Below are positions 1 to 23,117 of a DNA stretch of 64,000 nucleotides, in pieces. Position numbers and translations under genes: made by a program. The stretch comes from Escherichia phage phiEc_1: sequence record LC768462.1; one strand, 5' to 3'. Each line of letters begins with the position of its first letter. Within the stretch, counting starts at the first letter, position 1. A model generated the notes under the pieces. That model searched no databases. It was given only the letters and a program-made list of their open reading frames with translations, and was not told the DNA's origin.

Positions 1-180
1 GCACCAGCAGCATCTCCAGCCCCTGTCCCACCATTAGCAATAGGTACATTATCCAGAGTAGAAACACTTCCCAACCCTAGATTAGAACGAGCACCAGCAG
101 CATCTCCAGCCCCTGTCCCACCATTAGCAATAGGTACATTATCCAGAGTAGAAACACTTCCCAACCCTAGATTAGAACGA
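1..180. repeat. perfect tandem duplication (2 x 90 bp) inside tail fiber gene; diverged copies at ~181-215 and ~450-500
   Basis: bases 1-90 identical to 91-180; encodes repeated 30-aa fibre-repeat unit. Confidence 0.85.
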
Positions 181-1967
181 GCACTAGCAGCATTTTTAGC
201 TCCAGTGCCTCCTCTTTCAACACCTAGAGCCAAATCGCCAACTCTTCCAGGCGAGGTACTGTAACATCCCCACCCATTATTATCCACAAAGAGGTAGGTT
301 TCTTTGTTAGGAGATAGTAATCTACTCTCCCCAGAGGCTTGATCAACTCTATCTATAGATAAATTGGAACGAGCAGCATCAACAGTAGTTGCCCCTGTAC
401 CACCATTAGCTATAGGAATTGTGTTGAGTGTAGCTATGGAGCTTAGACCTAGATTAGAACGAGCACTAGCAGCGTCTTTAGCTCCAGTGCCTCCTTGTGT
501 GACAGACAGTGCTGTAGTGAGTCCCGTGAGGGATGTTATATCAGAGTTTGTACCAGAAGCGGCAGCACCTAAAATTGATCTGGAGATGTTCACATTACCA
601 GTAATCTCATCAGGAGCTTGGTTATTTACAGTAACAACATAAGGTTTCTGAGCCTGTACAGACCCATTGTACTGAGAGTCTTTATCAGAATCTGGTGCTC
701 TTATTGCCTCCCCTCCAGTCCAATCAGGAAGTCGAATGTTGATAAAATTAGTAGAATCTGCATCGGTAATACCATCTGCCAATTTACCCCAAGAGAAGTA
801 TTGTTTAGCCCCTGCTTGCCATTCAGTTTCAGAAACAACAGGAAGTTGTCCACTGACAAGGGATGGGCCTAAATCTGAAGCAGACTCTTTAGACACTAGA
901 CGACCATCGGCTGGAAGAACGCCCGGATAGGAGATATTCTTTGTTGGGTCATAAGGGAACATTACCATCTCACCAAGATATAGAGAAGGGTTTCCTGTTG
1001 GAATGGTAATGTCAATATTACCACTGGAGTCTGGAGAACGGGAATTAACAGTAAGAATTCTACCTTCAGTTTTAACAGGAGTTAATGTTTTGTTAGCAGC
1101 AACAGTATAAAATTCATACTTAGTAGCTTCCCAAACTAAGACCTTCTCACCAACTTGGCGATACTGAGCGTCAGCATCAGCTTCTGCTTTAGATTGATAT
1201 GTCTTGGTGGTTTTATCAAACTTGTCATTAATCTCTTGACGACTGTACTGAGCAACGTTCAGAACATTTCCTAAACCTACCGTCTCTTTGTTAAGCGTTA
1301 GAGCAACCTCTCCATCAAGAGCTGGACCGCCGTTAATAGAGACAGAACGGACAGATGGGATTAAATTAGCAATATTCTCTAGAGTGGTTTTGTGGACGGT
1401 ATTGTCATCTTTGTCAACATAGAAACCCAAGTCACCTAGCTCTGGAACACCGGTAGGTGCTGTATCCAAATCCTTAACAGAACCATCTTTTCCGGGATCG
1501 CCTTCTGGAATACCTAAAGATATTACACCAGTGTTAGGATTAAAAGAACCAGTAGCCGGAGTTCCTGGAGGAAGCGTAGTCACATTAACGGACATTCCCA
1601 ACAGAACATCAAGCTGATTCTGGACCTCAATGAGCTTCTGATTAATGAGAGCAACAGCATTGTTAGCATCAGAGACTGCTGCATTAGTCTGAGCAATCAA
1701 GCTCATCAGACGAGCATCTTGATCTTTAAAATCCTGCTTAAGATCTTCGATATCCTGCTTCATCAGAACACCTTGTTGATACAGACGTTCTACTTCAGCG
1801 ATCAAATCATCAATTGTACCAAACTTAGATTCTGCTAACAGTGCCCAATATTTGGAATCAGCTGCATATTCTGCTGCTTGCTTGTAAGCTCCGATAGAGC
1901 CTTCAGTAGCACCAAACTGCCCAACGTTATTCACTGCATCAGGTGCTTGGTTATTATAAACGATCAT
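1..1967 (-). CDS. tail fiber protein (partial; runs off window start)
   Basis: ATG at 1967 on minus strand preceded by AAGGAG; N-terminal side-tail-fiber-like region, collagen-like GDPGKDG, repeated GGTGA..AAxARSNLGL fibre-repeat motifs; no stop before window edge. Confidence 0.75.
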   Translation of the reverse strand, partial: MIVYNNQAPDAVNNVGQFGATEGSIGAYKQAAEYAADSKYWALLAESKFGTIDDLIAEVERLYQQGVLMKQDIEDLKQDFKDQDARLMSLIAQTNAAVSDANNAVALINQKLIEVQNQLDVLLGMSVNVTTLPPGTPATGSFNPNTGVISLGIPEGDPGKDGSVKDLDTAPTGVPELGDLGFYVDKDDNTVHKTTLENIANLIPSVRSVSINGGPALDGEVALTLNKETVGLGNVLNVAQYSRQEINDKFDKTTKTYQSKAEADADAQYRQVGEKVLVWEATKYEFYTVAANKTLTPVKTEGRILTVNSRSPDSSGNIDITIPTGNPSLYLGEMVMFPYDPTKNISYPGVLPADGRLVSKESASDLGPSLVSGQLPVVSETEWQAGAKQYFSWGKLADGITDADSTNFINIRLPDWTGGEAIRAPDSDKDSQYNGSVQAQKPYVVTVNNQAPDEITGNVNISRSILGAAASGTNSDITSLTGLTTALSVTQGGTGAKDAASARSNLGLSSIATLNTIPIANGGTGATTVDAARSNLSIDRVDQASGESRLLSPNKETYLFVDNNGWGCYSTSPGRVGDLALGVERGGTGAKNAASARSNLGLGSVSTLDNVPIANGGTGAGDAAGARSNLGLGSVSTLDNVPIANGGTGAGDAAG

Positions 1968-1976
1968 ATTATCTCC

Positions 1977-2729
1977 TTATACACGAGAAGTGCGAATACC
2001 ATAAATATCAGGCAAGCTGCTCTGAAGTCGAGTCATGTTATTCGGAATTGCGATAGGTGAACCTGAGTACTCTTGTTTCTTATTCTGTTCTACCATTTCA
2101 TCAAGGATAGCTTTCCCTAATGCTGACCATTTCTGAACACCATTATCATCTTGAACAAAGAGACAAGCATGACGTAGGGTGAAGTACAGAAGAAGTTCTG
2201 GTGCTATAGTAAGAATAGTACTAGTATCTGTATCTTCATGGAATTCCGGTGGGTCTGCATAATAGCTAAGAATCACTGAGTTTTCTGCTGGAATCAAAGG
2301 GCTTCCATCATCAGGGTAGTACGGAGTATCTGCTTCGATGCTAGGGTAGAAAATGAAACGACTACCGAAACGAGCAAAGTTGACAGGTTGGTTATTCCAG
2401 TGAGATGGGTTAATTGTTCCATGCTGTCTACGATAGCTAATCTCTTCAGGAGAGGTTACTTGGAAGATTGTGCCATCTTTGGCTCTCATCATCCATTGAG
2501 CTTCTAAGTAATCAGGAGGAATGTAAGCTACTCCATCTTTAATATCTAAATACACTTCTTTTTCCAGAGGAGGAATACGTAAGTTACGATAAATCTCTTT
2601 CTCTGCAAAGTTAATAAAGTTTGGAATTTGATTAACAAATTCGTCATCGTCCCTATCTGCCCAGAGGGCCACGGCCTTCTTTAGCCACCCATAGGTATTG
2701 ATGGGGTATTGAACATCTGGCATTGCCAT
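1977..2729 (-). CDS. virion-associated protein, function unknown
   Basis: 250-aa ORF with AAGGAGG SD, between capsid and tail fiber genes; no recognisable motif. Confidence 0.55.
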   Translation of the reverse strand: MAMPDVQYPINTYGWLKKAVALWADRDDDEFVNQIPNFINFAEKEIYRNLRIPPLEKEVYLDIKDGVAYIPPDYLEAQWMMRAKDGTIFQVTSPEEISYRRQHGTINPSHWNNQPVNFARFGSRFIFYPSIEADTPYYPDDGSPLIPAENSVILSYYADPPEFHEDTDTSTILTIAPELLLYFTLRHACLFVQDDNGVQKWSALGKAILDEMVEQNKKQEYSGSPIAIPNNMTRLQSSLPDIYGIRTSRV

Positions 2730-2762
2730 AGGTTGTCCTCCTTGTTATATGTAGACAAAGAA

Positions 2763-2771
2763 TATACATTA
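2763..2771 (-). promoter_or_regulatory. TAATGTATA motif (candidate phage-specific promoter element)
   Basis: exact 9-mer on minus strand 33 nt upstream of ATG at 2729, downstream of a terminator. Confidence 0.4.
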
Positions 2772-2799
2772 CACACTGGCTTGTATAGGTCTTAAAACG

Positions 2800-2823
2800 A
2801 AAAAACCCCGCCCGAAGGCAGGG
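2800..2823 (-). terminator. intrinsic terminator after capsid/Ig-like ORF
   Basis: minus-strand hairpin CCCUGCC-UUCG-GGCGGGG followed by U6. Confidence 0.6.
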
Positions 2824-2830
2824 TCTAGTT

Positions 2831-3343
2831 TTAAGCAGGTGTTACACCAGTAAAAGTGCATGTTGCATTGATGGATGGGTCAGCTGTCAAACTTGCTTGA
2901 ACAGTAACTTCGCCACTTGCAGCAGCATCTAAGGTTAACGCACCAGCGGCGCTTACTGTACCAGCTTCTGTAGGGGTTACAACAAACGTGTAATCCGCAG
3001 CAGTAGAATTAGTTACAGTAAACATGGTAGTGAAGTTAGTGGAAGAACCACCAGTTTTACCCGTAATTGGACCCTTAGCTACAATAGTAGGAGCAGGAGC
3101 AACAATTTCAGAAATGGTTGCTGTACCAGAAACACCTTCTAAAGTTGCAGTAATGGATACATCAGTGGATTGAGACGCACTCGGAGCAGTATACAAACCA
3201 GACTGAGTGATAGAACCACCTCCTGTCACTGACCAAGTAAAGCCAGTTGTTTCGGTAGAACCATCACTTTTCTCCGCGCTTGCAGTGAACTGCCGAGTAG
3301 CCCCTGTCTCTAGACTTGCTAAAGACGCAGGGCTAACAGTCAC
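2831..3343 (-). CDS. Ig-like (Big_2-type) domain, probably a C-terminal extension of the capsid protein via -1 frameshift
   Basis: S/T-rich Ig-like sequence (FTWSVTGGGSITQSGLYTAPS...TATI); frame open upstream into capsid 3' end; no SD before GTG 3343. Confidence 0.6.
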   Translation of the reverse strand: MTVSPASLASLETGATRQFTASAEKSDGSTETTGFTWSVTGGGSITQSGLYTAPSASQSTDVSITATLEGVSGTATISEIVAPAPTIVAKGPITGKTGGSSTNFTTMFTVTNSTAADYTFVVTPTEAGTVSAAGALTLDAAASGEVTVQASLTADPSINATCTFTGVTPA

Positions 3344-11435: not shown

Positions 11436-12309
11436 ATCCATCCATGTGCTGTGTTTAAGCTTTCCACATTTACTACATCTCCAAGTGGACTTATAAAGGG
11501 TGTGAACTCTTTCATCCCCGTAAGCTTTGCGTATCCGATAGTACTCATGATCACATTTGAATTGCTTAATGATTAACTTAATTTTCCACATAAGTTCTCT
11601 TTCAACCTTATATATAAGAGTTTAAAATTCTGATTTGACCGAGTGGACCTAGCCGCTTCCCGCGTGTTTCCTAAAAAGGGGGAGTCCTCATTTAAAAAAG
11701 GGTTATTGGCAATGCCTTTAAGCCCATTCCCACGTTCCAACCTTTCCCCGTGCCTACTCCCCGTAATTATTCCCCCGTGTATACCATCCTATTCATTAGC
11801 TACCCGTTTATTTAGTTCCCCTTTAAAGAGTGAGAGAAAGGCCAGCACTGTACAGGCACTACCATAAGAGAGCTAATAATACCCATAAGTAATAGCTCAC
11901 ATCCCCCATAGTTACGTTGATAATAGTTTCAATAGTAATGATTATGAGTGCAATAATGATGTATGTATTAATTAAGTGGAAAGATTATGTTTGATGTTTA
12001 TTATATTCTTTTATTACTTTCTTTTTTCAGCGTTCTTTTATTCTTTTCTTTTAACGTTCGATGTGTATGAGTTTACATTAATAGTTAACTAATTATTTAA
12101 GTGGTATATTATTACCGCACTATCTTGCATGTTTCCCCGTGGTCTGTTCTGCGGTTGTTGTATCCCCGTTTGTCCTGGTCTGTTGGTCTGTTACCCGTAG
12201 TGTTATAAAGTAACAATATCTAGTAAGCTGATTCTCTGAGTATGGAAAGTTTAGTAAATTAAATTCCTTTAGTTTTCAGTGAGTTATAGGAAAGTTAGAA
12301 AATAAATGG

Positions 12310-18476: not shown

Positions 18477-18499
18477 AGCCGCCTTTGAGCGGCTTTTTG
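18477..18499 (+). terminator. intrinsic terminator
   Basis: AGCCGC-cuuuga-GCGGCU + U5. Confidence 0.6.
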
Positions 18500-18561
18500 C
18501 GTTGCTGTAAGTGCATTTGCGAGTGTATTTATAGCAACGGTCATGTGTTGCTTTCAGGTTT

Positions 18562-18587
18562 GCCCCGGCTACGGCTGGGGCTTTTTT
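18562..18587 (+). terminator. intrinsic terminator/attenuator
   Basis: 8-bp GC-rich stem with UACG loop + U6, 27 nt before next ATG. Confidence 0.6.
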
Positions 18588-18613
18588 ATGTCTACTGTAT
18601 AGGAATCTATGAA

Positions 18614-19348
18614 ATGAAAGCAATTGTATTATCCTCAATCCTAGCTCTGTCCGTAATGGCATCGCCTGTTTTTGCTAAAAGTGGAAACAATGGCAATGGC
18701 AATGGAGGTTGTGGTGTAGGTCAATCTACCAATGGTTGCGGTATCGGAGATTGGTTTAAAGGTGAAAAAGGTGATCAGGGAGAGAAAGGCGACACTGGCG
18801 CTAATGGCATTGATGGTAAAGATGGCATTGATGGTAAAGATGGCATTGATGGTAAAGATGGCATTGATGGTAAAGATGGCATTGATGGAGAACAAGGCGC
18901 TCAAGGTGAAAAAGGTGATTCTGGTGCAGATGGTAAGAAAGGCGAAACTGGCCTAACTGGTGCAGCAGGTTTGAATGGCGTTGACGGATTAAATGGCAAA
19001 AACGGTAAAGATGCAGATATGTCTGCCGTTAATGCTAACGCCAAATCCATCAAAGCTCTGGAACAATCCACCAATAAACGTTTTGCTTCTTTGCAAAAAC
19101 AAGTAGACCGTAACCGTGATCATGCCTCTGCTGGTATTTCTGGCGTGGCTGCAATGGCTAACATCCCGCAAGTAAGTCAAGGATCTGCTTTCTCTGTTGG
19201 TGCTGGGGTAGGTGCTTACGATGGTGAATCTGCTCTTGCTATTGGTGTTAGTGCTCGTTTCAATGAAAACTTAGTAACTAAAGCATCAGTGGCAATGACT
19301 TCAGAGAGTGACGCTGTTCTGGGCGCTGGTGTAAGTTACGAGTGGTAA
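18614..19348 (+). CDS. secreted collagen-repeat protein with YadA-like C-terminal anchor (trimeric-autotransporter-like)
   Basis: signal peptide MKAIVLSSILALSVMASPVFA; Gly-X-Y repeats; C-terminal anchor-like region ending VSYEW. Confidence 0.65.
   Translation: MKAIVLSSILALSVMASPVFAKSGNNGNGNGGCGVGQSTNGCGIGDWFKGEKGDQGEKGDTGANGIDGKDGIDGKDGIDGKDGIDGKDGIDGEQGAQGEKGDSGADGKKGETGLTGAAGLNGVDGLNGKNGKDADMSAVNANAKSIKALEQSTNKRFASLQKQVDRNRDHASAGISGVAAMANIPQVSQGSAFSVGAGVGAYDGESALAIGVSARFNENLVTKASVAMTSESDAVLGAGVSYEW
18806..18877. repeat. 18-bp perfect tandem repeat x4 (GGCATTGATGGTAAAGAT), encodes GIDGKD
   Basis: read directly; fifth diverged unit follows. Confidence 0.9.
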
Positions 19349-23022: not shown

Positions 23023-23095
23023 GCGCTCTTAGCTCAATGGATAGAGCAGTAGCCTTCTAAGCTATTGGTTACAGGTTCGAGTCCTGTAGGGCGCA
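23023..23095 (+). tRNA. tRNA-Arg (anticodon UCU); CCA encoded at 23096-23098
   Basis: hand-folded cloverleaf: 7-bp acceptor stem, D-arm, anticodon loop CU-UCU-AA, T-arm ACAGG-TTCGAGT-CCTGT. Confidence 0.9.
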
Positions 23096-23117
23096 CCAAA
23101 TCTAATAGGAGGTAATT

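Follow-up and report, generated by a model that had tools for sequence, protein, structure and literature searches.

In the cryo-electron microscopy study of phage SU10, the proximal protein of the long tail fibre is gp12, whose trimer docks on the adaptor via its first 90 residues; beyond these the protein is too flexible to resolve, and only residues 1-90 were built in PDB 7z47 (PMC9509320). The distal protein, gp13, completes a 700-Å fibre with one elbow (PMC9509320). In the paper on the second BASEL collection, the model of the distal protein is a T-shaped fibre that bears two receptor-binding domains and is attached to a "long proximal fiber" (PMC11990801), and according to the paper on YF01 both long-fibre genes are among the most variable of the group (PMC9965538). 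Phages of this group are used for therapy, and with SU10 a recent structural model is at hand. Here we describe a perfect in-frame tandem duplication of 90 nucleotides (nt) in the gene for the proximal long-tail-fibre protein. The duplication lies at the left edge of a 64,000-nt stretch (from here on, the window) of Escherichia phage phiEc_1 (sequence record LC768462.1), a phiEco32/SU10-like podophage (Kuravirus, Gordonclarkvirinae).

Fibres that change length by repeats have been described in other systems. How long an adenovirus fibre is depends on how many short repeats its shaft has, a number that varies between lineages; this is an analogy only, the fold and sequence of these pseudo-repeats being unrelated to those of the fibre in the window. 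In phage T4, duplications in the gp37 adhesin reportedly expand the host range, as Tetart and colleagues are said to have described in 1996. Those duplications resemble the present one in being short, in frame and located in a fibre gene, where they arise between short repeated motifs. However, the T4 segment lies in the receptor-binding tip, whereas the segment described here lies in the proximal shaft, with the receptor-binding domains located on another protein. In Enterococcus phage EfV12-phi1, in-frame tail-fibre duplications of 1.8 kb arose in experimental coevolution and accompanied increased infectivity (PMC6365445). They too are head-to-tail, in a long-tail-fibre gene and outside any recognised binding domain, but their unit is 1.8 kb long and its copies vary within an isolate, whereas our unit has 90 nt. 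In contrast to events in or next to a receptor-binding region, the duplication found here lies in the gene for the proximal fibre. The duplication is an event of an ordinary type, already known in fibre genes, and reveals no new mechanism.

A perfect in-frame repeat in the proximal fibre gene

A first-pass annotation of the window had claimed that bases 1-90 and 91-180 are identical. We confirmed this identity at 90 of 90 positions, with the two copies arranged head-to-tail. Tandem Repeats Finder (TRF) reported one array at 1-193 (period 90, 2.1 copies, 99% matches), which was the top-scoring tandem repeat of the entire window. The exactly periodic stretch spans bases 1-184 and corresponds to a 94-nt exact run at offset 90 from base 1. 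In relatives with a single copy, exact identity at the same offset extends over at most 9-12 nt, so that a run of 94 nt is far beyond chance. The array touches the left edge of the window, and the copy number is therefore a lower bound, at least two units.

The coding strand of the array is the minus strand, on which it is translated as ...GGTGAKNAASARSNLGLGSVSTLDNVPIAN GGTGAGDAAGARSNLGLGSVSTLDNVPIAN GGTGAGDAAG, where the window ends. Ninety nucleotides are 30 codons, and since the length is a multiple of three, the open reading frame (ORF) remains open across both copies. The 30-residue fibre-repeat unit proposed in the first-pass annotation agrees with this translation. At the junction between the units, AGATTAGAACGA is followed directly by GCACCAGCAGCATCTCC, and the flank to the right of the array, on the window side, reads GCACTAGCAGCATTTTTAGC. 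The unit is one representative of a 30-residue module of the fibre shaft with the pattern GGTGA-x5-AR-x-NLGL-x11. In the span 1-500 there are five module starts (residues 492, 522, 586, 616 and 646) and an insert of 64 amino acids (aa), so that the array as a whole is not uniform. The diverged copies that had been noted nearby were recovered as well, namely one unit with 67% identity and a pair of 48-nt module heads with 96% identity (Table 1); in SkaterBoy, the two heads are identical over all 48 nt.

The encoded protein is 95% identical to SU10 gp12 over 538 aa, with residues 1-120 identical, and its residues 1-641 matched the profile phrog_10305 ("tail fiber protein") with E=0, which bears out the initial placement of the repeat in a tail fibre. 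PDB 7z47_D was matched by the protein of the close relative MN03. The search of the visible 655 aa against Pfam gave nothing significant; full-length homologues (P0001, P0009) carry a C-terminal PF25670 (Phage_tail_C_2) domain, and the C-terminal part of the protein lies outside the window here. Which fibre gene this is becomes clear from the adaptor gene directly upstream; in MN03, SkaterBoy and phiEco32, the downstream neighbour of the proximal-fibre gene is the second fibre gene. We identify the gene as the one for the proximal long-tail-fibre protein in a Kuravirus of the phiEco32/SU10 type, the same gene as that for SU10 gp12, phiEco32 gp14 and AnnaHegner (Bas87) Gp9, with which it has in common the adaptor-contacting N-terminus, the place after the adaptor gene, and modules of the type GGTGA..AR.NLGL.

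With gp12 as the proximal protein and the distal one as the bearer of the receptor-binding domains, the repeat sits in the shaft of the proximal half-fibre, outside the receptor-binding domains. The earlier suggestion that a change in repeat number might alter host range is weakened accordingly, because the receptor-binding domains belong to the distal T-shaped fibre, in relatives the product of the next gene (PMC9509320, PMC11990801). The gene for this distal protein lies outside the window.

Relatives without the extra unit and the probable origin of the duplication

In megablast searches of 50,697 phage records, the closest record was Escherichia phage MN03, with 98.1% identity over window positions 1-3000 and 97.5% over 40000-64000. 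In MN03, SkaterBoy_Bas90, EC.W2-6, EC.W14-3, EC.W8-1 and ev_rybdy8, the region corresponding to window 1-330 has only 240 nt, at 99.4-99.7% identity. When MN03 and SkaterBoy were aligned with the window (alignment A1), they followed it almost base for base over 91-520, bases 1-90 appeared as an insertion, and the left flank of the relatives (...AATATTGAACCTT) departed exactly at the unit boundary. At the protein level, the single-copy relatives read ...GGTGAKNAAS ARSNLGLGSVSTLDNVPIAN GGTGAGDAAG ARFNIGAL... in this region. In a collection of 15 billion proteins, the MN03-type cluster at 90% identity was made up of 11 distinct sequences, drawn from over 30 contigs, and each of them is 852 aa long.

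A genome with both copies was not found among the 50,697 phage records when 1-330 and 1-3000 were used as megablast queries (best identity 98.1%). A 29-mer across the unit junction had no match in IMG/VR, JGI metagenomes or GTDB genomes, and a 60-mer across the junction had none in IMG/VR. Exact matches to the portal and adaptor proteins came only from relatives with other fibre alleles. The additional unit is a singleton on an otherwise near-identical allele, which looks like the pattern left by a recent event. Because the unit is absent from all close relatives while the flanks are 99.5-100% identical to theirs, the duplication should be recent if it is real, and to that extent the first-pass annotation was right to propose a very recent duplication.

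We regard it as probable, with some reserve, that a recent in-frame duplication by slippage or illegitimate recombination added one more module to the shaft, with a small or no effect on infection. A single event between neighbouring modules, either replication slippage or illegitimate recombination, would account for the sequence. The first bases of the unit are GCACC and those following the second copy are GCACT, while the unit ends in ...ACGA and the left flank of the relatives in ...CCTT. Only GCAC is exactly shared, and this junction microhomology of just 4 nt points to slippage or illegitimate recombination rather than to homologous exchange. The native spacing of the modules, 90 nt, explains why exactly one module would have been copied and the frame kept.

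The product would be one more 30-residue module in each chain of the trimeric shaft. The proximal half-fibre would become slightly longer and the receptor-binding domains would stay untouched, so the change in fibre length anticipated in the first-pass annotation is to be expected. Scaling from the 300-400 Å of the SU10 proximal fibre (PMC9509320), taken for about 786 residues, the gain may be very roughly 1-2 nm per module. If real, the duplication would be a natural example of a fibre shaft growing one module at a time, caught before the copies diverged. An isogenic pair with one and two modules could then be used to probe how the length of the proximal fibre relates to adsorption through O-antigen.

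Such a change would be in keeping with the natural variation of the gene. Among 120 representatives of homologue clusters, the longest run of modules exactly 30 residues apart was 0, 1, 2, 3 and 4 in 22, 63, 11, 21 and 3 proteins, respectively. In SU10, a protein of 786 aa contains a single run of two modules, and MN03-type proteins have 2+2 in 852 aa; phiEco32 has 1+3, and three other homologues (P0009, P0010 and P0024) have 1+4. The allele in the window has two plus at least three, two of which are identical in every base. Natural homologues tolerate one to four consecutive modules, and changes at the level of modules are normal in this gene. The module motif is also widespread in fibres, as residues 430-640 were matched by more than 10 PHROG tail-fibre families.

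Perfect identity of neighbouring modules is exceptional, since established neighbours are identical at only 52-58 of 90 nt, even with 24 of 30 residues agreeing. One further case of partial identity was found in MT446413, a record that contains the gene in its interior. Adjacent modules there have an exact run of 71 nt in common, a tract which shows that modules of another lineage have recently exchanged sequence. This tract, together with the three consecutive modules of phiEco32-type fibres, would fit a different history for the window as well, in which an old, phiEco32-like run of three modules existed and two neighbours were later made identical by gene conversion. We consider this history highly improbable, because the flanks are 99.5-100% identical to those of 852-aa relatives that lack the module altogether. 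The allele in the window equals the relatives' allele plus exactly 90 nt, for which duplication needs one step and conversion two.

Table 1. Features of the proximal-fibre locus in the window (all on the minus strand).
Feature	Position	Strand	Remarks
Proximal long-tail-fibre gene, 5' part, 655 codons; ATG at 1967, 3' end past the left edge of the window	1..1967	-	Homologue of SU10 gp12 / phiEco32 gp14
Additional 90-nt unit copy, encodes ARSNLGLGSVSTLDNVPIANGGTGAGDAAG	1..90	-	Identical to 91-180; missing from nearest relatives, which diverge exactly at the unit boundary (alignment A1)
Unit copy matching the single copy of MN03, SkaterBoy and FS2B	91..180	-	Nearly every base of 91-520 agrees with MN03 and SkaterBoy; relatives 240 nt, window 330
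Module head of 48 nt (..GGTGAKNAASARSNLG..), member of a pair spaced by 282 nt	166..213	-	Repeat search, reference copy
Next, older module start (GCACTAGCAGCAT)	181..193	-	12/13 match to the first 13 nt of the unit; TRF end 193, exact period end 184
Module 2 and 64-aa insert (aa 522-585), predicted small beta domain between two module runs	213..404	-	AlphaFold2 monomer
Diverged 90-nt unit copy, 67% identical, in the upstream module pair (aa 492-551)	373..462	-	Repeat search
Second 48-nt module head, 96% identical to 166-213	448..495	-	Repeat search
Adaptor protein gene, directly upstream of the fibre gene	1977..2729	-	Exact protein on SU10 and other Kuravirus contigs, marked PF24175 SU10_adaptor

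The record edge and the number of units

Several observations weigh against taking the two written units as the outcome of a duplication in the phage genome. The exact periodicity begins at base 1 of the window, the very base at which a simple array of two copies would start, and a random cut would fall there in about 5 of 77,000 cases (~6e-5). It is therefore much likelier, and we consider it probable, that the record itself starts at base 1 and that the circular assembly behind this record was opened at the repeat. The part of MN03 that is not covered by the window has 13.4 kb and begins with the rest of the fibre gene; the window and this part together come to about 77.4 kb, a normal genome, which is consistent with base 1 as the start of the record. 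The direct terminal repeat of phiEco32 (193 bp) has just one counterpart in the window, an internal one at positions 11651-11842, indicating that the source is permuted relative to the physical genome ends. The duplication was present in no independent genome.

Assemblies of other Kuravirus genomes break in the same gene. FS2B consists of two contigs, with breaks in the proximal-fibre gene and in a collagen-like adhesin gene. Its contig MW929183 opens with a perfect 282-nt tandem duplication (a 305-nt periodic run from base 1; L004:1-587). The other contig, MW929182 (L005:1-340), ends in about 30 nt of unrelated sequence. The TH34 record MT446407, labelled UNVERIFIED, starts and ends in the fibre gene, with ends that overlap by about 530 nt, and a 76.8-kb Logan contig (SRR29999898, L022:16063-18066) also starts inside the proximal-fibre gene. 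In an offset-90 test of 28 related loci, TH34 (L007:1-420, L008:2900-3445) had the sole other 90/90 tandem pair. The concern, already voiced in the first-pass annotation, that the duplication might be an assembly artefact is thus a real one.

Two of these records have further peculiarities. Compared with the 99.8%-identical MT446413, the TH34 gene is short of two modules, the first and the second, and of the insert, and it is either a real recombinant or a mis-assembly. The Logan contig encodes an identical portal protein and has a different fibre allele, in which the module heads are separated by insert domains.

Taken at face value, these observations would fit an effect of assembly or of the record edge, in which a circle was opened at the repeat and the two written units are not the real number, which might be one, three or more, or a mixture. 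The start of the array at base 1, the permutation relative to the physical termini and the singleton status of the duplication would all follow, and there are parallels at the same locus in the perfect 282-nt duplication at the start of the FS2B contig and in TH34, with its ends overlapping in the gene and its perfect 90-nt pair. The records of MN03 and FS2B moreover end in the window's other tandem-repeat gene, the one for the collagen-like adhesin. Nevertheless, we think this explanation rather unlikely. For a loop to form in a de Bruijn graph, an exact repeat of k nt or more is required at the spacing of the loop, and the single-copy relatives have only 9 nt at offset 90. An untrimmed circular overlap should leave one copy at either end of the record rather than a tandem pair at one of them, and its length would have to match the 90-nt period and frame of the modules by coincidence.

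FS2B MW929183 and TH34 MT446407 are alike to the window in having a perfect tandem array at or next to the first base, in the same gene. The likeness to FS2B does not extend to the repeat at the loop spacing. In MN03 and SkaterBoy, the exact run is 9 nt at offset 90 and 26-48 nt at offset 282, and the latter can explain the FS2B duplication as an assembler loop, in contrast to the 90-nt period of the window with its 9 nt at most. As no k-mer loop yields the unit-to-unit junction from 9 nt of identity, reads must contain the junction, and it is probable that two or more units are present in at least some of the molecules.

We tried and rejected two specific artefacts, namely a k-mer loop from a single-copy genome (only 9 nt identical at offset 90) and an untrimmed circular overlap (both copies at one end, with a length equal to the native module period, in frame). 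In general, fibre lengths annotated from short-read assemblies need checking at the proximal-fibre and collagen-like adhesin genes.

If molecules with two units exist, they may also coexist with others. A lysate containing a mixture of one, two or more modules, similar to a contingency locus, could have made the assembler break at this point, and the copy number might possibly tune the fibre length to the depth of O-antigen or capsule. The perfect identity of the copies, the repeated breaks of assemblies in the proximal-fibre gene and the partial homogenisation of adjacent modules in the lineage of MT446413 are all in line with such ongoing variation. There is a precedent in EfV12-phi1, where the reads of one isolate contained 0-4 extra copies of the in-frame tail-fibre duplications (PMC6365445). 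On the other side, all 11 of 11 distinct MN03-type sequences have 852 aa, a count to be read with one bias in mind, namely that assemblies made with short k would break at a repeat of this kind and so conceal copy-number variants. Furthermore, neighbours with 52-58 of 90 nt identical are a poor substrate for frequent slippage.

We therefore hold ongoing variation in the lysate to be improbable. The broader claim is doubtful to a similar degree, namely that the Kuravirus module array varies in copy number within populations, that perfect duplications often arise and collapse, and that this is why the present assembly and those of TH34 and FS2B break where they do. If the copy number were variable in this manner, a population would contain virions with fibres of differing reach through O-antigen or capsule.

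Predicted structure, block loss or gain and other loci in the window

In order to look at the shaft region in structural terms, the visible part from residue 440 to 655 was modelled as a monomer with AlphaFold2. The mean pLDDT score (predicted local distance difference test) was 64.9. The model suggests that in each module the AAxARxN segment forms a short helix and that the 64-aa insert folds into a small beta domain, whose strands (residues 102-140 of the modelled fragment) had pLDDT values of 80-87. A Foldseek search of the model against the PDB gave no match with E <0.7. When the repeat region was compared with PDB sequences, only remote fibre matches were found (9zd7 gp92, the 6cl5 R-pyocin fibre and 8vbx gp47).

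The fibre family also differs by a larger block. Two homologues, one of 880 aa (P0005) and one of 786 aa and SU10 type (P0011), differ by exactly one block of 94 residues. The edges of the block are two module heads, the same 48-nt heads that lie 282 nt apart in the window; the block is found in MN03-type proteins and is absent from SU10. Its presence or absence between the 48-nt heads indicates loss or gain of the block mediated by the repeat. The same stretch between the heads is the one that occurs twice at the start of the FS2B contig MW929183.

A second repeat lies in the collagen-like adhesin gene of the window. The product of an ORF at 18485-19348, on the plus strand, combines a signal peptide with a GXY region of collagen type (PF01391) and a membrane anchor resembling that of YadA (PF03895); it is a protein which is named "agglutinating adhesin" or "YadA-like protein" in relatives and whose matched span varies among them. 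Within the ORF, at 18804-18888, there is a perfect 18-nt tandem repeat of 4.7 copies that encodes (GIDGKD)n. Both FS2B contigs, as well as the records of MN03 and PGN6866, have an end within this gene, which makes it a second repeat locus where Kuravirus assemblies break. The sole tRNA found in the window, at 23023-23098 on the plus strand, is a tRNA-Arg with the anticodon TCT.

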